This document shows, in pieces, positions 2,091-15,512 of a DNA stretch of 15,619 nucleotides. The notes beneath the pieces are model-generated. The model was not told the origin of the DNA. It was given only the letters and a program-made list of their open reading frames with translations, and made no database searches. This DNA is from Candidatus Staskawiczbacteria bacterium RIFCSPHIGHO2_02_FULL_34_10. Lineage in GTDB: Bacteria; Patescibacteriota; Minisyncoccia; Minisyncoccales; Staskawiczbacteraceae. The first letter of the stretch is position 1. Each line of letters begins with the position of its first letter. Location of the stretch: positions 18,240 through 33,858 of the forward strand of contig MHOR01000007.1 in assembly GCA_001821915.1 (NCBI GenBank), given 5' to 3'. Made by a program: the position numbers and the translations under genes.

Positions 2091-2114
2091 GTTTTCCTCT
2101 CTTCTGTGAATGTT

Positions 2115-2153
2115 TCTCGTTAAATAGTCCGCCACAAACGGAATTTAACGAGA
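2115..2153 (-). promoter_or_regulatory. Perfect 11-bp inverted repeat (TCTCGTTAAAT…17 nt…ATTTAACGAGA) in the 5' leader of the SPFH gene
   Basis: The arms at 2115-2125 and 2143-2153 are exact reverse complements, and the element lies about 25 nt upstream of the proposed ATG at 2090. It may be an operator or a leader hairpin. Confidence 0.3.
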
Positions 2154-2270
2154 AGAAGTTTTTAAAGGACTGTCCAATTGACTTAAAACAATCAAATCAA
2201 TAGGTTATCTTTCTTATATCATAGTAAAGTATTCTTGTCAACCACTTTTTATTAATATTAAATACTATGT

Positions 2271-2300
2271 TGTTTTGTTACTATTTTATGTGATATAATG
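2271..2300 (+). promoter_or_regulatory. Candidate sigma70-type promoter for the plus-strand 4HB/T4SS-like operon (TTGTTT -35, extended -10 TGaTATAAT)
   Basis: An extended -10 element TGATATAAT ends at 2300, with TTGTTT about 18 nt upstream. It sits in the divergent intergenic region between the SPFH gene and the first 4HB gene. Confidence 0.3.
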
Positions 2301-2323
2301 AATAGTGAATTATTAATTTCTAT

Positions 2324-2766
2324 TTTTGAATTTCGAATAAATTTAAAATGATTTAATTTGAAAATTTATGGACAAAAAGTATGATTTAGAAGAAAGAACG
2401 GGGAGTTTTGGAAAAAGTATAATTAATTTTTGTAAATACATCAAACAAGATGTAATAACTAAACCTCTTATAAGCCAACTTATTCGTAGCGGAACAAGTA
2501 TAGGGGCAAATTACATGGAAGCCAATGGCGCAAGTTCAAGAAAAGATTTTAAAAATAAAATACATATTTGTAAAAAAGAATCCCAAGAAACAATGCATTG
2601 GTTAAAAATGATAATAGAATACGAGCCAAATAAAAAAGAACAAGCTATGATACTATGTAAAGAAGCGCAAGAATTAACTTTTATATTCGGAAAAATTATT
2701 TCATCTATGAATTCTAAAAATTCGGCATTCTGATTTTAATCAAAATTCGAAATTAGAAATTCAAAA
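2324..2766 (+). mobile_element. IR-bounded cassette 1 carrying four-helix-bundle gene 4HB-1
   Basis: The left arm TTTTGAATTTCGAATAA (2324-2340) and the right arm ATTCGAAATT[AGAAATT]CAAAA (2745-2766) are inverted copies of each other, apart from a 7-nt tandem duplication in the right arm. The same arms recur at 9861-9941. Confidence 0.4.
2368..2733 (+). CDS. Four-helix-bundle protein (Avd-like / '23S rRNA intervening sequence protein' family), paralog 1, 121 aa
   Basis: The diagnostic central motif LIRSGTSIGANYMEANGASSRKDF (L-x-RS-x-xSI-xAN-x-EG/A… S-x-KDF) is present. The size, about 120 aa, fits the family. Confidence 0.75.
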   Translation: MDKKYDLEERTGSFGKSIINFCKYIKQDVITKPLISQLIRSGTSIGANYMEANGASSRKDFKNKIHICKKESQETMHWLKMIIEYEPNKKEQAMILCKEAQELTFIFGKIISSMNSKNSAF

Positions 2767-2773
2767 TTTAGAC

Positions 2774-3190
2774 GTGGCACAGTATCCCATACCACAATTT
2801 ATTGAAAAAGAAGGAAAAATTATTTCTTTTTTAACCTTTAGACAGTTTTTTTTACTTGCCGGAGGAGGGGGCGCCTGCCTTTTATTGTATTTTATTCTGC
2901 CATTTTTTCTTTTTGCGCTTTGCGCAATAATTATAATGTCTTTAGTCGCAATAATAGCTTTTTTAAGAGTTAATGGGTTTTCTATAATAACAATATTTTT
3001 AAACTTTGTTGGTTTTTTAACAGGCAGTAAAACTTATATATGGAAAAAAGAAGAATCTTCTTATCCATTTAAAGTGTTAAAACGCCAAGAAGTTAAAAGT
3101 ATAGAAGAAGTAAAAACACCAAGTTTTTTAATGAAATCAAAGGCTAGTAAATTAAATGAGATTAAAAAAATGGTAGAATTAAAGAAATAA
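2774..3190 (+). CDS. PrgI/VirB3-like small membrane protein of Gram-positive-type T4SS (GTG start), 138 aa
   Basis: A short N-terminal cytoplasmic segment (…PIPQFIEKEGKIISFLTFRQFFLL) is followed by a double-helix hydrophobic hairpin (AGGGGACLLLYFILPFFLFALCAIIIMSLVAIIAFL). The gene sits immediately upstream of the VirB4-family ATPase, as prgI does relative to prgJ. The assignment rests on architecture and context only. Confidence 0.4.
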   Translation: MAQYPIPQFIEKEGKIISFLTFRQFFLLAGGGGACLLLYFILPFFLFALCAIIIMSLVAIIAFLRVNGFSIITIFLNFVGFLTGSKTYIWKKEESSYPFKVLKRQEVKSIEEVKTPSFLMKSKASKLNEIKKMVELKK

Positions 3191-3210
3191 TTTAGCTAAA
3201 TTATTTCTTT
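3181..3210. repeat. Perfect 30-bp palindrome AAAGAAATAATTTAGCTAAATTATTTCTTT overlapping the stop codon of the PrgI-like gene
   Basis: The 30-mer is its own reverse complement, giving a 14-bp stem with a 2-nt loop. It lies 5 nt before the left IR arm of cassette 2. Confidence 0.5.
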
Positions 3211-3215
3211 AATTA

Positions 3216-3703
3216 GAATCTAGAATCTTGTATCTTGTAGTTGGAATAGAATAAAGAATTATGAATAATAATGAAAATAAAATAAGAAAATTTACAGATC
3301 TTTATGCTTGGCAAGAGGGACATAAGTTAGTTTTAATGGTTTATAAAAATACTGAACAATTTCCAGAAAAAGAGAGATATAGTATTGTAGACCAAATGAG
3401 AAGAGCTGTAGTTTCTTTGACTTCCAATATAGCAGAGGGATTTTCAAGGAGGTCATCAAAAGAGAAAAATAGATTTTATTGCATAGCTCAAGCATCACTA
3501 GTAGAATTATAAAATCAATTTATTATATCTCGCGATGTTGGTTATCTATCAGAAAATGATTTTAAAATAATTGCTGACCAATCAGTTATAGCCAATAAAC
3601 TTTTAAATGGACTCTTAAAAGCTACTAAAGATAAGAAATTTGAGTCTTAGATTCTAAATTCAAAATATTTAATTCAAGATACTAGATACAAGATTCAAGA
3701 TTC
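3216..3703 (+). mobile_element. IR-bounded cassette 2 carrying 4HB-2 (interrupted)
   Basis: GAATCTAGAATCTTGTATCT (3216-3235) and AGATACAAGATTCAAGATTC (3684-3703) are reverse complements at 19 of 20 positions. Together they bracket the 4HB ORF like the stem of an rRNA IVS. Confidence 0.45.
3261..3650 (+). pseudogene. Four-helix-bundle (Avd-like) gene, paralog 2, interrupted by an in-frame TAA at 3510-3512. The N-terminal part is the 83-aa ORF in the track; the family's C-terminal part continues in the same frame to a TAG at 3648-3650.
   Basis: The N-terminal part carries …LYAWQEGHKLVLMVYKNTEQFPEKERYSIVDQMRRAVVSLTSNIAEGFSRRSSKEKNRFYCIAQASLVEL, a classic family motif. After the TAA the same frame reads NQFIISRDVGYLSENDFKIIADQSVIANKLLNGLLKATKDKKFES*, the expected C-terminal helix. 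A single base change (CAA, GAA or AAA to TAA) would explain the interruption. Confidence 0.65.
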
Positions 3704-3710
3704 ATAGTTT

Positions 3711-4373
3711 ATGGAAACAGCAACACAAGAATTTTTAGAAATAAAGGATATTAGAGAAGGTGTTTTGATTTTAAAAAATAACAACATAAGAGGGGTTCTT
3801 ATGGTTTCTTCAACAAATTTTGCTTTAAAGTCTAATGAAGAGCAGTCTGTTATTGTTTATGCATATCAAAACTTTTTAAACTCGCTTGATTTTTCGTGCC
3901 AAATTGTAATTCAATCAAGAAATATTAATATTACTCCCTATTTAGACAGCATTAAAAATTTAGTGGATAAACAGCCCAATGACTTATTAAAAGCGCAAAC
4001 TTCTTCTTATGGCGAATTTATAAAAGAGTTAGTGCATGGGGATAATATTATGACAAAAAACTTTTATGTGGTTGTGCCATATACTTTAACAGAAATACTA
4101 GGGGTAAAAGCTGCTTTATCAGAAACCAGTTTTTTTAAAAGTTTTAGTAAAAGTAAGGATAAAAAACAGCAAATGAAAGACGAAGACTTTGAAAAATGCA
4201 AAAACCAGCTTTGGCAAAGAATGGAGTTTTTAGCTATGGGATTAAAAAGATGCGGCTTAGATGTTATTCCTTTAACAACCCCTGAATTAATAGAGTTATT
4301 TTGGTCTGTCCATCATCCAAGCGAAGCAGAGGTTGGGTATTATCCGGAAATATTGCCAGAACTCCTTAAATAA
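3711..4373 (+). CDS. virB4: N-terminal domain fragment of a VirB4/TraC/PrgJ-family T4SS ATPase, 220 aa, ending at the left edge of cassette 3
   Basis: There is no NTP-binding motif. The sequence resembles the N-terminal region of Gram-positive VirB4 homologues (…IKDIREGVLILKNNNIRGVLMVSSTNFALKSNEEQSVIVYAYQNFLNSLDFSCQIVIQSRNINITPYL…). The downstream 599-aa ORF begins where such proteins continue. The combined length (220 + 599 = 819 aa) matches a full VirB4. Confidence 0.45.
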   Translation: METATQEFLEIKDIREGVLILKNNNIRGVLMVSSTNFALKSNEEQSVIVYAYQNFLNSLDFSCQIVIQSRNINITPYLDSIKNLVDKQPNDLLKAQTSSYGEFIKELVHGDNIMTKNFYVVVPYTLTEILGVKAALSETSFFKSFSKSKDKKQQMKDEDFEKCKNQLWQRMEFLAMGLKRCGLDVIPLTTPELIELFWSVHHPSEAEVGYYPEILPELLK

Positions 4374-4846
4374 TATTAAATATTAAAAAGCAAAAAGCAA
4401 AATGACAAATTAAAATGGAAAATCAAAAAGATAGCAGTAAATTTAAGGTGGAATTTAAAAAAAGATTATATACATTTGTTTTAAAAATGATTGAATTTAT
4501 TGATAAGCTGCCAAATGATAATGTTTCAAGAAGGATAGGGGATCAATTATTAAGAAGTGGAACAAGTATTTTGGGTAATTATATTGAAGGACAATCAGCA
4601 AGTAGTAAAAAAGATTTCATTAATTTTTTTAATCATTCATTAAAATCAGCTAATGAAAGTAAATTGTGGTTTGCAATAATTAGAGACAGTAAAAGAACTA
4701 AAGACTATATTGTTGTTTGGTTTTTAAAAGAATTAGATGAAATAGCAAATATATTCGCATCCAGTATCATAACTCTTAAAGGGAAAAATAAACTTTGATT
4801 TTTGATATGTCATTTTTATATTTGATATTTAATTTTTGATATTATT
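4369..4846 (+). mobile_element. IR-bounded cassette 3 carrying 4HB-3, inserted between the two halves of the VirB4-family gene
   Basis: The left flank is AATAATATTAAATATTAAAAAGCAAAAAGCAAAATGACAAATTAAA. The right flank is TTTTTGATATGTCATTTTTATATTTGATATTTAATTTTTGATATTATT. The two are imperfect inverted copies that share TGTCATTTT/AAAATGACA, ATATTTAAT and AATAATAT/ATATTATT. The TAA stop of the N-terminal half and the ATG of the C-terminal half sit at the cassette edges. Confidence 0.4.
4415..4798 (+). CDS. Four-helix-bundle protein (Avd-like / 23S rRNA IVS protein family), paralog 3, 127 aa
   Basis: Carries the family motif …IGDQLLRSGTSILGNYIEGQSASSKKDFINFFNHSLKSANESKLWF…. Confidence 0.75.
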   Translation: MENQKDSSKFKVEFKKRLYTFVLKMIEFIDKLPNDNVSRRIGDQLLRSGTSILGNYIEGQSASSKKDFINFFNHSLKSANESKLWFAIIRDSKRTKDYIVVWFLKELDEIANIFASSIITLKGKNKL

Positions 4847-6646
4847 ATGAAGTTACCATTCTTCAATAAGAAGGACGACGAAATAGAAGATAAAATGTTT
4901 GTGGAGCAAAATATTGACGTAAAAGACATTATAGCTCCACCATACATTGGCATAACCCAAGATTATATAAAATTAGGGGATAAAATTGCCAAATCTTTTT
5001 TTATTTTTTCTTACCCAAGGTATTTAAACACTGGATGGCTTTCTCCTGTAATTAATTTGGACGTCCAAATGGATATATCTTTTTTTATACATCCTATTAA
5101 TAGTGAATTAATTTTAAAAAAATTAAGGTCTAAAATTACTATGGTATCTTCAGAATTAATGGAAAGGCAAGAAAAGGGCCTAATAAGAGACCCTGCTTTA
5201 GAAACTGGATATCAAGATATTGAAAACTTGCGCGATAAAATTATAACCGCTCAGGAAAGAATGTTTAGGTTTGGGCTTTATATAACTATTTACGAAGAAA
5301 CAGAAGAGAAAATCAAATCAATTGAAGTTAATTTAAGATCAATTTTTGAATCACGCCTAATTTATATAAAACCTTCTTTATTTAAACAAAAGGAAGGTTT
5401 TATTTCAGCTGTCCCGTACGGACTAGATTTAATAAATGTCCATGTGCCAATGGATACAGAACCATTATCAACCACATTTCCTTTCATTTCTTTTGATTTA
5501 AGTTCTAATGAAGGTATTTTATATGGAGTAAATAGGCATAATAATTCTCTTATTTTATTTGATAGATTTACATTAGAAAACTATAATTTAGTTGTTTTTG
5601 CTAAATCTGGATCTGGTAAATCATATGCAATAAAACTAGAAATTTTAAGATATTTAATGTGGGGAATTGACGTTATTGTTATTGACCCAGAAAACGAATA
5701 TGAATTTTTAGCTGATGGAATAGGGGGGAATTTCTTTAAAATATCTTTAAATTCAGATAATCACGTAAATCCTTTTGACTTGCCGCTGCCAGGGCCTGAT
5801 GATGACCCTGAAGATATTTTAAGATCTAACACTATAAACTTAGTTGGATTATTTAGGATAATGTTAGGGGGTTTAACAAGTGAAGAAGACAGTATTTTAG
5901 ACCAAGCCATAACAGAAACATATGCTATAAGAGATATAACCCCGCAATCCGATCCAAATACATGGCAAGAAAATATACCTTTAATGTCTAACTTTGAAGA
6001 AATTTTAGAAAATATAACCCAAGCAGAATCTTTGGTAAGACGCCTTAAAAAATATACAAGAGGAACTTTTTCTGGATTTTTCAACCAACGGTCAAACATA
6101 CAAATTGATAAAAGTTTTATAGTTTTTGGAATAAGAGATATGGAAGAGTCCTTAAGGCCTATTGCTCTTTTTATAGTAATGAGATATGTTTGGAACATAG
6201 TAAGAACAAACATAAAAAAAAGAATTTTGGTGGTTGATGAAGCTTGGTGGTTAATGCAATCAGAGGATGGCGCTTCATTTTTATTTGGTTTAATAAAAAG
6301 AGGCAGAAAATACTGGCTGGGAGTTACCACTATAACTCAAGACATTGAAGACTTTATGAAGTCTCCTTATGGAAAAGCTATTATTACAAACTCTTCACTG
6401 CAACTTTTATTAAAACAATCTCCCGCGGAAGTTGATATATTACAAAAAACATTTGACTTAACAGAACAAGAAAAGATGCTTTTACTGGAAGCATCTGTTG
6501 GAGAAGGGCTTTTCTTTGCTGGTAAAAAACATGTATATATTAGTATAAAAGCCAGCTATACTGAAGACCAAATAATAACCACTAATCCGGGAGAAGTTGA
6601 GAAGATAAAAGAAGCAAAAAGGAGATTAAAACAATCCACAAATTAG
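4847..6646 (+). CDS. virB4: VirB4/TraC/PrgJ-family T4SS ATPase, C-terminal 599 aa including the P-loop NTPase domain
   Basis: Walker A VVFAKSGSGKSYAIK. Walker B RILVVDEAWWL, with the DEAW motif typical of VirB4/TraC. The region before the P-loop (YPRYLNTGWLSPVINLDVQMDISFFIHPI…LRSKIT…ELMERQEKGLIRDPALETGYQDIENLRDKI…ERMFRFGLYITIY) matches the conserved VirB4 middle domain as I recall it. Confidence 0.7.
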   Translation: MKLPFFNKKDDEIEDKMFVEQNIDVKDIIAPPYIGITQDYIKLGDKIAKSFFIFSYPRYLNTGWLSPVINLDVQMDISFFIHPINSELILKKLRSKITMVSSELMERQEKGLIRDPALETGYQDIENLRDKIITAQERMFRFGLYITIYEETEEKIKSIEVNLRSIFESRLIYIKPSLFKQKEGFISAVPYGLDLINVHVPMDTEPLSTTFPFISFDLSSNEGILYGVNRHNNSLILFDRFTLENYNLVVFAKSGSGKSYAIKLEILRYLMWGIDVIVIDPENEYEFLADGIGGNFFKISLNSDNHVNPFDLPLPGPDDDPEDILRSNTINLVGLFRIMLGGLTSEEDSILDQAITETYAIRDITPQSDPNTWQENIPLMSNFEEILENITQAESLVRRLKKYTRGTFSGFFNQRSNIQIDKSFIVFGIRDMEESLRPIALFIVMRYVWNIVRTNIKKRILVVDEAWWLMQSEDGASFLFGLIKRGRKYWLGVTTITQDIEDFMKSPYGKAIITNSSLQLLLKQSPAEVDILQKTFDLTEQEKMLLLEASVGEGLFFAGKKHVYISIKASYTEDQIITTNPGEVEKIKEAKRRLKQSTN

Positions 6647-6680: not shown

Positions 6681-8192
6681 ATGTTTAAAAAATATAACCA
6701 CCTAATACTTTTTGTCAGCTTATTTGTCTTGGTATTTTTTGCTTTAACTAATATTCAGTCTGTTTTAGCTCTTGAATTAAATTATCCTACACTCCCAGCT
6801 CCATTTAATATTGGGTGGAATGACTGTTCTAGCTCGGTACCATCGCCTACAGGAAATTGTCCGACTTTAACTCAATATATTGCTTATATTTTTTATTTCG
6901 CAGTGGTAGTGGCTGGAATAATAGGCGTTTTATCTATAATTATATCCGGCTTTCAAATATTATTATATGCTGGCAATCCATCTGCAATAAGCGCCGCGAA
7001 AGAAAGAATTTTTGGCTCTGTTTTAGGAATAATTCTTTTAATGTTTTCTCTTGTGCTTTTGCAAACTATAAACCCGGCACTTGTAAATGTGACTCAATCA
7101 GAGTTACTGCTTCAACCTGGACTTTATTATAGGGGTGACAACCCCAATCCTGGACCTACCACCCCCTATGTATATAAACCGGCGTCCACACAATCATCTA
7201 ATGTATTAACCGATTTACCTGCAGGATTTTCACATCTTTATTATAAATGCAACCCGCCCGGCAAAGCTCTTTTAGTTTGGACATATAGTAGAATAACCTG
7301 GAATTTAGACTATGTCGCAAATGGAAATTCAAATGCAACAACATTTCGCATACCATGTGGCTCTTCAATGAGTATAAGTCTTGATTCTGTAATGTCTTTT
7401 TATACAGCGTCCGAAGAACCTGGTGTTTATTTCTTTTTAAAAACTGGATGTGAGGGCTCTAGTACTACTGTCTTGCAAGAAAGCGGCCATATACCTGATT
7501 TTAGTTATATATATACTGAATTAGAACCACCAGTACTTTCATTAAGAATCGTTAATGAGGGTCTAATTCAAAAATATGCAGTGATTTTAAATAAAGATTA
7601 TGAATTTAAGAAAGAATGCAGCGCGCCACTTGGAATATTTAGTGGCACAATTGTAACCCCTCCACTCGAAGAAGGTAATTGTATTAATGTGTTGCCTCCC
7701 GATAAAGATGGAAATATATTTAATCCTTTTTCTGCATATATTATAAAACAACACGTTCAAGAATATCCGTCTATTTATACCGCTACTTTTTACAGTGGAA
7801 ATTTAGAGGCTAAATTTGAAAAACCTAATATAAAACAATGGTACTCATACGAGGGGAATATGAATCTTATTTTCACAAATAGGTGGCAAGATTCATCGAG
7901 AGTACCTCTGGATGCTTGGTATGCTGACCAATCCAAATGTAAAAATATAGTTGGTGATTACACTTGTTTAAACTATATAGAAAATGATGGATTTTTCAAC
8001 ATTATCCTTTATAGTAGTAATGAAAACGCACCTAATCCTAGTAGAACTAGATCTTGTGAAGTTTTCTTTAGTGAAAATTTAATCGCTGATGACCTTGACC
8101 TTCACTCAGATTATAATAATGCAAGTTATATAAATCTTTTACAGGGAGGTAGAAGTTTATATAGAATGGATATTATCCCTTATCCTAAATAA
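6681..8192 (+). CDS. Secreted/membrane protein: a cleavable signal peptide, a VirB2/TrbC-like pilin module (two hydrophobic helices separated by a short polar turn), and a roughly 360-aa Cys-rich extracellular domain with a Pro/Gly linker
   Basis: The N-terminus is MFKKYNHLILFVSLFVLVFFALTNIQSVLA, followed by the helix pair TQYIAYIFYFAVVVAGIIGVLSIIISGFQILLYAGNP…KERIFGSVLGIILLMFSLVLLQTINPAL, which is organised like the T4SS pilin families of CPR bacteria. A linker PGLYYRGDNPNPGPTTP follows. The C-terminal region has at least 12 Cys and no recognisable catalytic motif. Confidence 0.4.
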   Translation: MFKKYNHLILFVSLFVLVFFALTNIQSVLALELNYPTLPAPFNIGWNDCSSSVPSPTGNCPTLTQYIAYIFYFAVVVAGIIGVLSIIISGFQILLYAGNPSAISAAKERIFGSVLGIILLMFSLVLLQTINPALVNVTQSELLLQPGLYYRGDNPNPGPTTPYVYKPASTQSSNVLTDLPAGFSHLYYKCNPPGKALLVWTYSRITWNLDYVANGNSNATTFRIPCGSSMSISLDSVMSFYTASEEPGVYFFLKTGCEGSSTTVLQESGHIPDFSYIYTELEPPVLSLRIVNEGLIQKYAVILNKDYEFKKECSAPLGIFSGTIVTPPLEEGNCINVLPPDKDGNIFNPFSAYIIKQHVQEYPSIYTATFYSGNLEAKFEKPNIKQWYSYEGNMNLIFTNRWQDSSRVPLDAWYADQSKCKNIVGDYTCLNYIENDGFFNIILYSSNENAPNPSRTRSCEVFFSENLIADDLDLHSDYNNASYINLLQGGRSLYRMDIIPYPK

Positions 8193-9831: not shown

Positions 9832-9860
9832 GTAAGCTAATTCTTAATTTCTAATTTCTA

Positions 9861-9941
9861 ATTTTGAATAAATTCTAAATGATTTAATTTTAAAAACGTG
9901 TTTCTAAAATTTAAAATTCTTATTTTATTCGAAATTCAAAA
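9861..9941. repeat. ORF-less copy of the cassette arms (MITE-like or solo-IVS-like element) in the rpmH-rnpA spacer
   Basis: 9861-9890 matches 2330-2359, the left flank of cassette 1 in direct orientation, at 27 of 30 positions, including the exact 14-mer AAATGATTTAATTT. 9924-9941 is the exact reverse complement of 2324-2341, an 18 of 18 match. 9927-9941 matches the cassette 1 right arm ATTCGAAATT…CAAAA. Both arms are therefore present with only about 30 nt between them. Additional TAATTTC-type 7-nt tandem repeats lie at 9841-9868. Confidence 0.5.
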
Positions 9942-9963
9942 TTCTAAATTCGAATTTAAATTA

Positions 9964-10098
9964 CTATACCGATAACTTCTTTCTCCCTTTAGCCCTCCTT
10001 CTTTTAAGAACCTGTTCTCCTTTTTTAGTTTTTTTACGCACTAAAAAACCGTGTGTCCTTTTTCTTTTCTTCTTTTTTGGGTTATATGTAAAACTCAT
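9964..10098 (-). CDS. rpmH: 50S ribosomal protein L34, 44 aa (not in the supplied ORF track)
   Basis: The reverse complement translates to [44 protein letters not shown], which aligns convincingly with E. coli L34 (…[26 protein letters not shown]…). The ATG is at 10096-10098 and the stop is the complement of 9964-9966. Confidence 0.9.
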
Positions 10099-10389
10099 AG
10101 ATTGTATAATTATTTAGGTTAATATAATATGGGACTATTGGCTAGTATAGTATAAAAAGGCGCTCTGGTCAAATATATATATATTTGATTTAAACTTTTA
10201 ATTATCATTTTACATTTTAATATTTGCATTTTTAATTTTTATTATTGTGCGTCTTCATTAAAATATACAACACAACTTATCCACAGTTTAATAACATATA
10301 CGACTATTTTGTTTTGATTTGACTCTTTACTTTAAGGTTGATATTTTATTTATATAATTCAAAGTAATTAAAAATATAAATATAAAAAC
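10099..10389. promoter_or_regulatory. Probable oriC region in the rpmH-dnaA spacer, with an AT-rich unwinding element and divergent rpmH and dnaA promoters
   Basis: A 291-bp non-coding AT-rich spacer lies between the divergent rpmH and dnaA genes. It carries an (AT)n tract at 10174-10186 and one perfect DnaA box. Confidence 0.55.
10277..10285 (+). promoter_or_regulatory. Perfect DnaA box TTATCCACA
   Basis: Exact 9-mer consensus located 105 nt upstream of the dnaA ATG. Confidence 0.6.
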
Positions 10390-11751
10390 ATGGAAAATAG
10401 TGAACTTTGGCAATCAGTTTTAGCTCAGATGCAGCTTCATATTTCTAAGGCAAATTTTGCGACGTGGTTTCAAAATACTAGTATTGTCTCAAAAGAAAGT
10501 GAAAAGATTATAATTTCAGTTCCTAATGCTTTTTCTAAAGAATGGCTAAGTAATAAATATTACAAACTAATGCTTAAAACAATGCGCGATATAGACCACA
10601 CTATAAAAGAGTTAGAATTTACTATTAATCCACAATCCCTGAAAAAAAATATTATCGATAGAAAAACAGAAACCGAAAACGAAAAAATAGATATAGAACA
10701 ATTAAAATTTGATGAGTTTAAAGTTAATAGGGAAACTAATCTTAATCCCCGTTATACATTTGAAAATTTTGTTGTAGGATCATTTAATGACTTAGCTTAC
10801 GCTGCAAGCTTAGCCGTCTCAGAAAGCCCAGGACAGGCCTACAATCCATTATTTATTTATGGGGGTGTTGGATTAGGTAAAACTCATTTAATGCAGGCAA
10901 TTGGTAATAAAATAACAAATGACTCTAAAAAGAAAAAAGTAAAATACACTACCTCTGAAAAACTTGTTTCTAGTATTATTTCAGCTATTAGAAGCAATAC
11001 AATGGAGTCTTTTAAAGCTAGTTTAGCCCCAATTGATGTTTTAATTGTAGATGATGTGCAATTTATATCTGGCAAAATAAAAACTCAAGAAGAATTTTTT
11101 CATGTTTTTAATTCTTTATATGAAAAAAATAAACAAATAATACTTTCTTCAGATAGACCTCCAAACGCTATTCCAGAATTAGAAGAGAGGTTAAGGTCTA
11201 GGTTTGAAGGAGGTATGATTGCTGATGTTAATTTACCAGACTATGAAACAAGATTAGTAATCCTTAAAACAAAACTTCAGGAAAAAAACTTAAAACTACC
11301 AGAAGATGTATTAGAATATATTGCATCAAATGTTAAAAAAAATATTAGGGAATTAGAAGGAGCTTTAAATAGTTTATTAATTTATTGTAAAGTTAATAAC
11401 ACCCCCACTGTAGAAATAACTAAAAAATTATTAAAAGGTTTTGTTTTTTCGCCTTTTGATATTGCAAATTATAAAAAAATTATTGAAACAGTCGCTAAAT
11501 TTTATAATTTAGAAGAAAAAAACCTTTTTGACCAAACAAGAAGAAAAGAAATTGTAAAACCAAGACAAATAGCTATGTATTTATTAAGAAAAGAATTAAA
11601 ATATTCTTTTCCCACAATTGCGAGAAAATTTGGCGGCAAAGATCATACTACTGTAATATATGCATATAAAAAAATATTAAAAGAAAGTGAAGAAAATAAT
11701 AAACTAACAGAAGAATTAAGTTTAATAAAACAGAGAATATATAGTGGATAA
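10390..11751 (+). CDS. dnaA: Chromosomal replication initiator DnaA
   Basis: AAA+ Walker A GGVGLGKTHLMQAIGN and Walker B VLIVDDVQF. The domain IV HTH KPRQIAMYLLRKELKYSFPTIARKFGGKDHTTVIYAYKKI follows the conserved GG-DHTTV signature. Confidence 0.95.
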   Translation: MENSELWQSVLAQMQLHISKANFATWFQNTSIVSKESEKIIISVPNAFSKEWLSNKYYKLMLKTMRDIDHTIKELEFTINPQSLKKNIIDRKTETENEKIDIEQLKFDEFKVNRETNLNPRYTFENFVVGSFNDLAYAASLAVSESPGQAYNPLFIYGGVGLGKTHLMQAIGNKITNDSKKKKVKYTTSEKLVSSIISAIRSNTMESFKASLAPIDVLIVDDVQFISGKIKTQEEFFHVFNSLYEKNKQIILSSDRPPNAIPELEERLRSRFEGGMIADVNLPDYETRLVILKTKLQEKNLKLPEDVLEYIASNVKKNIRELEGALNSLLIYCKVNNTPTVEITKKLLKGFVFSPFDIANYKKIIETVAKFYNLEEKNLFDQTRRKEIVKPRQIAMYLLRKELKYSFPTIARKFGGKDHTTVIYAYKKILKESEENNKLTEELSLIKQRIYSG

Positions 11752-11796
11752 TATATATAATAAATCTATTAATTAAAAAATAAAAAATATATTCTA

Positions 11797-11808
11797 TTTA
11801 TCCCCACA
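11797..11808 (+). promoter_or_regulatory. Degenerate DnaA-box-like site TTATCCCCACA in the dnaA-dnaN spacer
   Basis: Matches the consensus with a single C inserted. It lies in a 204-bp AT-rich spacer. Confidence 0.2.
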
Positions 11809-11955
11809 ATATATTTATATATTTTTTAACTACTTTATTAACAGTTTATTTATTTTAATTTTATATATATTTTTATAATAAAAAATTACCAAAAATCATT
11901 AAAACATTATCTATAATAGTAATAATAATTTAATATATTAATAATTATAATAATT

Positions 11956-13083: not shown

Positions 13084-13100
13084 AAATTAAAGGTTAAAAT

Positions 13101-13130
13101 AAAAAACTCGCCTATAGGCGAGTTTTTTAT
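13101..13130. terminator. Bidirectional rho-independent terminator between convergent dnaN and the PBP gene
   Basis: AAAAAACTCGCC TATA GGCGAGTTTTTT. An 8-bp stem (AACTCGCC/GGCGAGTT) with a TATA loop, flanked by an A-run and a T-run. Confidence 0.65.
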
Positions 13131-13131
13131 T

Positions 13132-15258
13132 TTAGTTATTTAAATTGAGCCACTTTTTAATACCTTCTTCCCATTGAATATACATAGGATCTGAATTTGG
13201 ATTTTGGATTGGCTGACCTAATGGATTATTTTTATCTATATAATGTAAAATACTATGTGGCTCTTCTCCTTCTGGAAATTTTCCAAGTAAGATAGGATTT
13301 ATATTTTGGATAGGATCTGGTTTTATAAAATTTTCTATTTCGTGGGAGTTTAATGATTTTTCTATAACTTTTCTCCATATAGGGGCTGCTAAACCAATGC
13401 CCGTTTTCTTATTTGTTGAAGAATTATCATTATTACCAACCCAAACTCCAACAACTACAAATGGACTATATCCTATTGTCCATGCGTCATTATAATATTG
13501 AGTTGTACCTGTTTTAGCAGCAACTTGGTATTTATCAAAATATAAAGCATTGTTTTGGCCAAACATTGGAGTTCTTGCATTATTATCTGACAATATATCA
13601 TTAATTTTTCTTGCTGTTTGAGTATCTAAAACTTTTGTGGATTGTTTTGTATTTTGTTCTATTATATTTCCATTATTATCTTCTATTTTTAAAATACTCA
13701 CAGGTGGAGTTTTTAACCCCTCTGTTGCAAAAATACCATATGCAGATGTAATTTCTAGTAATGTTACCTCTCCACCCCCTAAAACCAAAGATAATCCATA
13801 TTTATCTGGTTCATTTAACGTTGTAATACCAAACGAACGCGCAGTTTCTAAACTATCTTTTAATCCACTTAAATATAAAAGCTCTACGGAAGGGATATTA
13901 AGAGATTGAGCTAAAGATGATCTTAAGGAAATCATCCCTCTATTTTTACCGTCATAATCTTGTGGATGATAACAATCTAATCCATATTTATCTTTTTCTT
14001 GAGTACTATCGGGATTACAATTTAAATTAAATTCTGTCTTAACGTCCCATAAAATAGTGTCTGGCGTATATCCTTTTTTAAGCGCAGTGGCGTATACAAA
14101 TGGCTTAAAAGAAGATCCTGGTTGACGAAGACCGAGCGTTGCTACATCAAATTTTGGATCAAATAAACAACTACCGCTTGCTTTTTCATCACACCCTTTT
14201 GGATAAGAATCTTCAAAATAATCTTTTGACCCTATTAAGGACAAAATTTCTCCTGTTTTAGGATCAATAACAACTATAGCTGTATTATTAGCATCAAATT
14301 TCACATTTGTTTTATCTGCCTCTTTTACCACTTCTTCGGTATAGTTTTGTAGTTCCCAGTCTAGTGTTGTATAAACTTTTAACCCCTTTTGCTGTAGAAA
14401 ATCTTGGCCATATTTATTCTCTAAATATTGCTTTATATACATTACAAAATGAGGGGCTTTAATTGGCGTTAAGGAATCAGAGAAGTTTAAGCTTTCTTCT
14501 TTGGCTTGTGATAATTGTTCACTATTAATATAGCCAAGATCTTTCATTCTTTCTAAAATAGTATCTTTTCTTTTTAAAAGCAAGTTTTTATGTGAACCGT
14601 ATGGCGAATAGTAGCTAGGAGCAGGTATTAGCGCGGTTAGGACAGCACTTTGCGCTAAGGATAAATTAGACGCAGATTTATTAAAGTATGTTTGGCTTGC
14701 TGCTTCAATACCATAGGAGTTTTCACCAAAAGGTATTTCATTTAAATACCAATTAAAAATTTGGTCTTTAGAATATCTTCTTTCTAGTTCTATACTTAAA
14801 ACTACTTCCCTCACCTTTCTTGATAGTGTTTTTTGTTTAGTTAAATAAACTGATCTTATTAATTGCTGTGTTATTGTTGACGCGCCAGTGCTGGCTTTTT
14901 GAAGCTTTAAATCAATTAATACAGACCTTATAATTGCTAAAAAATCAATTCCGCCATGCTGATAAAATCTATAGTCTTCAGAAGCTAAAACAGCATGTTT
15001 TAAATTATCTGAGATTTTATCAAATGAAATAATTTCTCTTTTTTCTTCTCCATAAATATCATACAAAAGAAATTTGCCCGTCCTATCATATATTTTAGTG
15101 GACTGTATAAATGGGCTTTCAGTAAACTTTTCTGGTCTAGGTAGGTCATAAGTATAGTAGAAAAATAAAAACAAAACAAAAAGCGCCAAGGCTAAAAGTA
15201 AAAAAGCCAGCCATTTTCCGATTAATAATAAAATTCTTATGTTCTTATTTTTTACCAT
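13132..15258 (-). CDS. ponA: Class A penicillin-binding protein (bifunctional glycosyltransferase/transpeptidase, PBP1A-type), 708 aa with an N-terminal TM anchor
   Basis: GT51 motifs EDYRFYQHGGID and GASTITQQL. Transpeptidase motifs SSFKP (SxxK), SLN and KTGTT. N-terminal anchor ILLLIGKWLAFLLLALALFVLFLFF. Confidence 0.9.
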   Translation of the reverse strand: MVKNKNIRILLLIGKWLAFLLLALALFVLFLFFYYTYDLPRPEKFTESPFIQSTKIYDRTGKFLLYDIYGEEKREIISFDKISDNLKHAVLASEDYRFYQHGGIDFLAIIRSVLIDLKLQKASTGASTITQQLIRSVYLTKQKTLSRKVREVVLSIELERRYSKDQIFNWYLNEIPFGENSYGIEAASQTYFNKSASNLSLAQSAVLTALIPAPSYYSPYGSHKNLLLKRKDTILERMKDLGYINSEQLSQAKEESLNFSDSLTPIKAPHFVMYIKQYLENKYGQDFLQQKGLKVYTTLDWELQNYTEEVVKEADKTNVKFDANNTAIVVIDPKTGEILSLIGSKDYFEDSYPKGCDEKASGSCLFDPKFDVATLGLRQPGSSFKPFVYATALKKGYTPDTILWDVKTEFNLNCNPDSTQEKDKYGLDCYHPQDYDGKNRGMISLRSSLAQSLNIPSVELLYLSGLKDSLETARSFGITTLNEPDKYGLSLVLGGGEVTLLEITSAYGIFATEGLKTPPVSILKIEDNNGNIIEQNTKQSTKVLDTQTARKINDILSDNNARTPMFGQNNALYFDKYQVAAKTGTTQYYNDAWTIGYSPFVVVGVWVGNNDNSSTNKKTGIGLAAPIWRKVIEKSLNSHEIENFIKPDPIQNINPILLGKFPEGEEPHSILHYIDKNNPLGQPIQNPNSDPMYIQWEEGIKKWLNLNN

Positions 15259-15469: not shown

Positions 15470-15512
15470 TAAAAAACAAAAACCCTATTAAAATAGGGTT
15501 TTTGTTTTTTTT
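15470..15512. terminator. Rho-independent, possibly bidirectional terminator after the upstream minus-strand gene
   Basis: AAAAAACAAAAACCCTATTAAAATAGGGTTTTTGTTTTTTTT. The stem AAACCCTAT/ATAGGGTTT has an AAA loop and is flanked by A-runs and T-runs. Confidence 0.55.

Follow-up and report, generated by a model that had tools for sequence, protein, structure and literature searches.

The window analyzed here is a 15,619-nt stretch of a Candidatus Staskawiczbacteria genome (Parcubacteria, candidate phyla radiation (CPR); assembly GCA_001821915.1, contig MHOR01000007.1, positions 18,240–33,858 of the forward strand), and it carries a plus-strand operon in which type IV secretion system (T4SS) genes alternate with three small genes for four-helix-bundle (4HB) proteins. 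Between positions 2368 and 8192, the order is 4HB-1, PrgI, 4HB-2, the N-terminal part of VirB4 (VirB4N), 4HB-3, the C-terminal part of VirB4 (VirB4C), and a T4SS pilin-like gene. This alternation had been read from the DNA in an earlier note, and profile matches to each gene bear it out. Every 4HB gene lies within an element of ≈460–490 bp, comprising a left arm, an open reading frame (ORF) of ≈120 amino acids from the PF05635/TIGR02436 family, and a right arm, that is inserted in sense orientation at the junction of two genes, between the stop codon of the first and the start codon of the second. We refer to these elements as cassettes 1 to 3 (c1 to c3); an ORF-less element with arms of the c1 family lies farther along the window (Table 1). 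The locus is recovered in independent assemblies from several samples, and we compared it with ≈170 related loci, labeled L001 upward. The evidence assembled below makes it likely that the cassettes are insertional elements of the type known from rRNA as intervening sequences (IVSs), living here in a protein-coding (mRNA) operon.

Table 1. Features of the T4SS operon and its cassettes, in window coordinates.
Feature	Position	Strand	Details
Cassette 1 (c1), whole element	2306–2770	+	left arm ≈2306–2355; 4HB-1 ORF 2368–2733; right arm ≈2722–2770
PrgI-family (VirB3-like) membrane protein gene, host operon	2774–3190	+	PF12666, 8.8e-07, above cut-off
Perfect 19+19-nt palindrome, no spacer	3177–3214	.	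100% complementary
Cassette 2 (c2), whole element	3216–3703	+	left arm 3216–3253; 4HB-2 ORF 3261–3650; right arm 3666–3703
VirB4 N-terminal part, separate gene, host operon	3711–4373	+	positions 9–154 of CD1110-type VirB4 model
Cassette 3 (c3), whole element	4369–4846	+	left arm 4369–4415; 4HB-3 ORF 4415–4798; right arm 4800–4846
VirB4 C-terminal ATPase part, host operon	4847–6646	+	CD1110 model positions 175–732, 2.4e-108
T4SS pilin-like protein gene, operon end	6681–8192	+	PF18895, 1.5e-06
ORF-less miniature element (hairpin), c1 arm family	9836–9960	.	arms 9844–9869/9934–9959, 85%

Inverted-repeat searches of positions 2100–5000, and then of the whole window with arms no more than 700 nt apart, both return the three 4HB-flanking pairs as the source of the four longest repeats, the fourth being a shifted variant of the c3 pair (4372–4414/4794–4836); the proposal that inverted repeats bound each 4HB ORF is thereby upheld. 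The c1 repeat spans 70 nt at 71% (2308–2377/2699–2768, core 2315–2338/2745–2768), that of c2 spans 38 nt at 82%, and that of c3 47 nt at 81%. Within c2, the 19 of 20 matched positions counted earlier between 3216–3235 and 3684–3703 are correct. When each whole cassette is folded as RNA, the minimum free energy (MFE) structure closes all three with a terminal stem of 36–38 bp, so the arms are predicted to pair in the manner the earlier note had envisaged. The c1 stem has 38 bp, formed by its left and right arms, and c3 has a 38-bp stem in both the MFE and the centroid structure. In the centroid structures the stem is complete for c2 and c3, whereas c1 retains just the outer part. The fit of c3 to its neighbors is exact: the VirB4N stop codon, TAA at 4371–4373, falls inside the left arm and therefore within the base of the stem, and the right arm ends one base before the VirB4C ATG at 4847, which comes immediately after the last paired base. 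The first cassette, c1, heads the operon and ends just ahead of the GTG (2774) that starts PrgI.

Most of the window has a GC content of 22 to 32%, and complementary flanks might arise there as a by-product of AT-rich, low-complexity intergenic sequence. Against dinucleotide shuffles, the arm–arm duplex energies of c1, c2, and c3 have z scores of −2.7, −6.8, and −5.0, with 5, 0, and 0 of 500 shuffles, respectively, matching the observed value. Such an explanation can point to c1, for which 13 of 402 genomic controls of the same geometry also fold as well. It fails for c2 and c3, which beat all 500 shuffles, and it does not anticipate that the longest repeats of the window should all be those of the cassettes. 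It is further contradicted by relatives of 4HB-3 and its arms (the c3 lineage, sampled at 80 metagenome loci and four genome loci representing 74 unique contexts), in which the inverted-repeat z score exceeds 3 in 64 of 76 cassettes, and by the cassettes of L005 and L008, whose arms are of the same design but GC-rich. We give this explanation next to no chance; the complementarity of the flanks, for which shuffled sequence had been named as the benchmark, is not compositional chance.

The arms are built as tandem arrays of 7-nt units, with four to six units in the left arm and an inverted copy of that array in the right. A period of 7 is dominant in all six window arms, in the ORF-less hairpin, in L004, L005, L007, and L008, and in 57–58 of 67 c3-lineage arms; the arms of L006 have a period of 9. 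The unit itself varies wholly between lineages, even among related cassettes (AAATCAA, GAATCTW, AATTTCT, TAGGGTC, CTAGNGA, and TAGCTTA), and despite this replacement of arm sequence, the inverted symmetry of the two arms is always retained. Because covariation within the c3 lineage is weak, the case for structure rests on this contrast between lineages. In the window, arm sequence is shared by c1 and the ORF-less hairpin only, whose left arms are identical at 50 of 57 positions (z = 14). The similarity among flanks that the earlier note reported thus stands for that pair and fails for c2 and c3, whose arms share the architecture but are unrelated in sequence. We also considered whether the three cassettes are recent copies of each other and rejected the idea: the three 4HB proteins belong to three lineages, being 32% identical or unalignable, and the arms are unrelated apart from the c1–hairpin pair.

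The hairpin, ≈125 nt in length, fills the spacer between rpmH and rnpA in a minus-strand operon. Its sequence has the orientation of c1 on the plus strand and is therefore antisense to its host operon, and it folds with an energy of −20.5 kcal/mol (z = −2.2). An ORF-less copy had previously been placed at 9861–9941; the copy is real, and arm alignment and folding extend it to ≈9836–9960.

All three cassette proteins are clear members of PF05635 (E-values of 7e-16 for 4HB-1, 1e-31 for 4HB-2 read through an internal TAA, and 1e-16 for 4HB-3; 58.8, 109.6, and 61.4 bits against a cut-off of 33.8) and of TIGR02436 (73.7, 100.9, and 79.0 bits against a cut-off of 24; E-value of 1.3e-20 for 4HB-1). 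Among solved structures in the PDB, 4HB-2 is related to 2GSC (6.6e-23) and 4HB-3 to 2RLD (2e-10), each an entry with five chains. The proteins are basic, with isoelectric points of 9.2 to 9.7, although in an AT-rich genome this is weak evidence. No close relative of 4HB-3 was found on viral contigs. Across the c3 lineage, the ORF has a median pairwise ratio of nonsynonymous to synonymous substitution rates (dN/dS) of 0.14 and is maintained by purifying selection.

These proteins had been described as Avd-like, after the accessory protein of diversity-generating retroelements (DGRs). The family assignment supports the four-helix-bundle part of that description but not Avd proper, as the Avd models NF033474 (24 bits against a cut-off of 80) and PF22296 (22 bits against 40) are missed by a wide margin. 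The Avd of DGRs does have a homologous four-helix-bundle fold and is likewise basic and assumed to bind nucleic acids (PMC10053308), and one could imagine the cassettes as DGR remnants in which Avd genes persist beside fragments of template and variable repeats (TR/VR). For such an origin there are a weak, subthreshold similarity of 4HB-2 to bAvd and DivGenRetAVD and a weak match of 4HB-3 to a segment of the RT_UG23 profile. With TIGR02436 passed and the Avd models far from it, no reverse transcriptase (RT) gene at the locus, and repeats that are inverted heptamer arrays rather than a direct TR/VR pair, we attach scarcely any credence to it.

We scanned one genome per species and obtained 80 orthologous PrgI–VirB4N–VirB4C–pilin loci (L004 to L083) with VirB4C identities of 50 to 84%. 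The 4HB genes are absent from 63 of these loci and present in 17, where their slots vary among the positions before PrgI, between PrgI and VirB4N, between VirB4N and VirB4C, and between VirB4C and the pilin gene. The distance from the VirB4N stop to the VirB4C start is −8 to +25 nt in most loci and 460–540 nt where a cassette is present; the empty sites expected in orthologous T4SS operons are thus found. At the c3 site itself, L009 has an orthologous cassette, and L004, L012, L017, and L018 have an empty site. In different genomes, a single slot can hold unrelated 4HB lineages, and a single lineage is found in several slots. PrgI, by comparison, keeps its position in every related locus that reaches far enough upstream. 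VirB4 is encoded by separate N (≈220 amino acids) and C (≈600 amino acids) genes in all 80 loci, often only 1 to 9 nt apart or overlapping (ATGA), and VirB4C homologues of at least 77% identity are all ≈600 amino acids long. Because the split is present with or without an insert, it is ancestral, and c3 as its cause is ruled out.

These patterns bear on the reading of the 4HB genes as dedicated T4SS accessory subunits, chaperones, or regulators, with the inverted repeats as operon-internal regulatory hairpins that arose on site. It is invited by the one-for-one interleaving of the window, by L009, where three 4HB genes likewise occupy these slots, and by a similar interleaving in a type IV pilus operon of a WS5 genome. 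However, most of the orthologous operons do without any 4HB gene, L009 has an orthologue of the window's gene in only one of the three slots, 4HB-2 is a pseudogene in the window, and the same elements occur between LeuC and LeuD, between TatC and TatA, among genes of the HisRS region, between glycosyltransferase genes, and elsewhere. We therefore find the accessory-subunit reading hardly credible. Occupancy of 17 of 80 loci and the turnover of lineages refute a conserved partnership and favor the spreading element that had been suggested in its place, and so do two cassette copies in L008 that are 100% identical over 489 nt. One lies between PrgI and VirB4N (3014–3502) and the other between VirB4C and the pilin gene (6090–6578); they match all the way from the TGA upstream to the ATG downstream, and their flanks are unrelated. 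On their sequence, the two are a recent duplication.

The same loci also record decay. In L005, L008, L010, and L016, the VirB4N/VirB4C distance is 90–125 nt, and the ORF-less spacer folds into a strong hairpin; that of L008 (4147–4238) has arms of the same type as the full cassettes of L008. A 328-nt intermediate in L004 has arms and a 47-amino-acid 4HB remnant. Together, full cassette, intermediate, and hairpin form a decay series.

In the window, c2 also shows decay. Its ORF is broken by an in-frame TAA at 3510–3512, where the same element in L172 and L175 has CAA (Gln), so that a three-way alignment identifies a C-to-T change from CAA. As the stop codon is also present in the independent assemblies L001 and L002, c2 is a recent pseudogene. 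In L172 the element lies between giant surface-protein genes and in L175 beside yqeY, with protein identities of 79 to 87%; its arms are near-identical to those of the window in L172 and recognizably the same in L175. Across the three unrelated contexts, homology begins and stops exactly at the outer arm tips (3216 and 3703 in the window), and this alignment defines the ends of c2. The search for further arm copies in related genomes, which the earlier note had put forward as informative, therefore leads to the same element in unrelated neighborhoods, bounded at the tips of its arms.

Just outside c2 lies the perfect palindrome listed in Table 1. Its first half is the final 19 nt of PrgI, stop codon included, and its second half, an exact inverted copy of these, stops 1 nt short of the left tip of c2. 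The palindrome contains only A and T, in contrast to the GC-cored terminator palindromes found elsewhere, and may be an insertion or repair scar. Host-flank palindromes are not a general trait of cassette ends, as the other perfect palindromes in the loci resemble bidirectional terminators.

Homologues of 4HB-3 number in the thousands, and the c3 lineage is broad in its surroundings. Its 74 contexts include at least 42 distinct neighbor families, with junctions at LeuC/LeuD, PilB/PilC, TatC/TatA, a hibernation factor beside SecA, and T4SS genes. Neighbors are co-directional in 52 of 56 cases upstream and 48 of 54 downstream. The upstream stop is mostly 20–31 nt from the 4HB ATG, and the 4HB stop mostly 47–69 nt from the next ATG; with gaps this tight on both sides, the element fills the stop–start junction flush. 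In 73 of 76 contexts the GC content of the cassette falls below that of its flanks, in hosts whose own GC content spans 31% to 64%. An Rfam check of 20 c3-lineage loci placed none of them in an rRNA gene, and the cassettes of the window are between protein-coding genes. These elements are thus units with defined ends. Across many lineages they have come and gone at operon junctions, replaced one another, and been duplicated, and they decay to ORF-less hairpins.

Several observations beside this survey concern interleaving, cargo, and assembly. In the WS5 genome, which belongs to another phylum, L177:3–3494 has the order PilB (T2SSE), 4HB, PilC (T2SSF), 4HB, pilin, with the same one-for-one interleaving, and the second of its 4HB genes (2533–2919) is a relative of 4HB-2 at 64% identity. 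Genes of a second family, GxxExxY (TIGR04256, PD-(D/E)xK-like), are found at L005:4770–5168, in the PrgI/VirB4N slot, and at L006:2316–2759, in the VirB4N/VirB4C slot, with a remnant at L006:1224–1412. They too are flanked by inverted short-unit arrays, which points to an arm design able to carry different cargoes. At the GxxExxY cassette of L006, a run of N (2141–2239) has flanking sequence duplicated on both sides, which is scaffolding at a repeat, and many 4HB homologues are on very short contigs (<2 kb). This suggests that the cassettes break assemblies.

The layout most like that of the cassettes is that of the rRNA IVSs, and the comparison with 23S rRNA IVSs drawn in the earlier note holds anatomically. 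In the Coxiella IVS, RNase III cuts a terminal stem of 28 bp, and the PF05635 ORF is immediately preceded by tandem heptamers (PMC4990558); in addition, PF05635 (23S_rRNA_IVP) ORFs have been reported in 16S and 23S rRNA insertions of CPR bacteria (PMC11270868). Like the cassettes, the rRNA IVSs of Leptospira, Coxiella burnetii, Xanthomonas, and CPR bacteria are ≈430–490 nt in size, enclose a PF05635 ("S23p") ORF within a terminal inverted-repeat stem, and lie in sense within the host transcript; they share heptamers by the start of the ORF, a patchy distribution, and short ORF-less versions (PMC4990558; PMC11270868). The differences are in host, gene fate, and processing. The cassettes reside in polycistronic mRNA between stop and start codons rather than in the loop of an rRNA helix, and their ORF is under purifying selection, whereas that of the Coxiella IVS is decaying. 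RNase III excision has been demonstrated for rRNA IVSs, whereas for the cassettes it is a proposal. In the literature, we found no description of 4HB, IVS, or GxxExxY cassettes in protein-coding operons, with most subscription journals outside the search, and the curators of TIGR02436 may already have noted scattered copies.

The miniature forms invite comparison with other small repeats. The Correia (nemis) elements of Neisseria and the ERIC/IRU (enterobacterial repetitive intergenic consensus/intergenic repeat unit) elements of enterobacteria are intergenic, are transcribed with their neighbors, form long imperfect hairpins, and are known or suspected substrates of RNase III. The 90–125-nt hairpins of the rpmH/rnpA and VirB4N/VirB4C spacers resemble these miniature palindromic elements, but their arms are 7-nt tandem arrays, no TA target duplication was seen, and they are deletion derivatives of a protein-coding cassette rather than of a transposase-bearing insertion sequence.

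Integron gene cassettes are the other system in which small, promoter-less ORFs travel with imperfect palindromes. Cassettes moved by a site-specific recombinase acting on folded, attC-like palindromes would accommodate ORF-less palindromes of attC-like size (90–125 nt), the replacement of cargo at fixed slots, and the second cargo family, GxxExxY, with arms of the same kind. An integron cassette, however, has a single attC downstream of its ORF and is arrayed by intI/attI; here the palindrome arms stand on both sides of the ORF, the elements are dispersed singly across operons with no array, and no integrase or attI was seen. We regard an integron-like mechanism as very unlikely. More generally, no transposase, recombinase, or RT gene is present among the genes of the locus (Pfam annotation), whether inside the elements or beside them.

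If the cassettes are IVS-type insertions, their sense orientation between operon genes means that they are transcribed within the operon mRNA, and the predicted folds outline how this could be borne. The arms would pair in the transcript to give the terminal stem of ≈36–38 bp that closes off the whole insert. By analogy with rRNA IVSs, RNase III may cut this stem, releasing the cassette RNA and separating the flanking cistrons. The stem would also keep the upstream stop beside the downstream start, such that a terminating ribosome could melt its base and free the next start codon, preserving translational coupling across an insert of 470 nt. Cutting and coupling are not mutually exclusive, and one or the other is the probable role of the stem. 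Either way, by making the insertion tolerable, the stem would allow the element to survive in tight junctions between subunit genes. More speculatively, the 4HB protein, which is basic and whose solved relatives are entries of five chains, may attach to the heptamer arrays and help the element to persist or spread. Movement itself would depend on an enzyme supplied in trans, and the GxxExxY protein is, as a speculation, a candidate nuclease for mobility.

Several results weigh against this IVS-type reading. We infer mobility from the distribution of the elements rather than from a mechanism. As in miniature inverted-repeat transposable elements and other transposons with terminal inverted repeats, there are multiple copies at non-orthologous sites, with homology ending at the tips of the repeats, but the target-site duplication expected of such elements is missing, with no direct repeat flanking either the L008 copies or the three c2-type insertions. 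The predicted stems are AT-rich and interrupted, their longest perfect helix being 10–13 bp, the arms of c1 barely beat shuffled sequence, the weakest result of the three, and z scores for folding of whole cassettes are modest (−0.9 to −2.5). In the c3 lineage, the pairing advantage of cognate over non-cognate arms is slight (alignment scores of 39.4 versus 35.1), so fine-scale compensatory evolution is weak. The heptamer sequence evolves faster than the 4HB protein, which argues against sequence-specific recognition of the unit by that protein. Finally, a function that benefits the host would also be in keeping with the strong purifying selection on the ORF.

The last point leads to the alternative in which the cassettes are domesticated modules of benefit to the host, such as insulators, sites of RNA processing, or a generic factor that binds RNA or DNA, and in which they spread mainly through ordinary recombination and transformation and persist by selection on the host instead of behaving as selfish mobile elements. 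A dN/dS of ≈0.14 across contexts is consistent with such modules, as is the way that sense orientation and flush fit preserve expression of the neighbors, and the GC content of the cassettes partly follows that of the host (r = 0.72), implying long residence. Domestication sits poorly with patchy presence and absence among close relatives, with decay to pseudogenes and hairpins, and with identical duplicate copies in one operon, and no host function is consistently linked to the cassettes. We judge it unlikely.

Returning to insertional cassettes of the IVS type, a broader proposal can be framed around them, which we offer tentatively as a possibility that falls somewhat short of being probable. 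The elements may constitute a hitherto undescribed class of non-autonomous mobile cassettes defined by terminal inverted heptamer arrays, with an interchangeable small cargo gene (4HB or the PD-(D/E)xK nuclease-like GxxExxY) and miniature hairpin forms, that colonizes stop–start junctions across bacterial phyla. Classical rRNA IVSs would then be the subset that landed in rRNA, the stem an adaptation that makes insertion into a transcript harmless, and the pentameric 4HB protein a factor acting on the heptamers.

The remainder of the window provides some general context. An Rfam search of the window gave no match, none of the PADLOC defense models matched meaningfully, and a scan of this AT-rich DNA for promoters and terminators returned 36 sites against 33 expected. 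Perfect palindromes of 19–20 bp with GC cores between runs of A and T occur at 13095–13134, between the convergent dnaN and penicillin-binding protein genes, and at 15471–15510, and both have the appearance of bidirectional intrinsic terminators. Between rpmH and dnaA, the spacer (9964–10390) contains a consensus DnaA-box-like sequence, TTATCCACA, at about 10281–10289, and the 204-nt spacer between dnaA and dnaN (11752–11955) has a GC content of ≈17%; these spacers are probably the replication origin region. At 1001–2000, a minus-strand Band7/SPFH gene stands out for its GC content (43–47%, against ≈28% around it), and its product has a C terminus rich in Gly and Ser.

More than 25 years after the identification of IVSs, the origin, mobility, and function of IVS/S23p remain unclear (PMC4990558). 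Elements of this kind are abundant between protein-coding genes, where their insertion boundaries are clean, some sites are empty, some copies are recent and identical, decay can be followed as a series, and the ORF is under selection, so the question of what IVSs are and how they move becomes testable. The cassettes account for the scattered "four helix bundle protein" genes that resist annotation at these loci in CPR and other genomes, and they may account for the very short contigs on which many 4HB genes are found. They also bear on gene calling, on operon prediction, and on apparent "accessory subunits" in the secretion and pilus loci of CPR bacteria, and they suggest how compact genomes tolerate insertions within tightly coupled operons.

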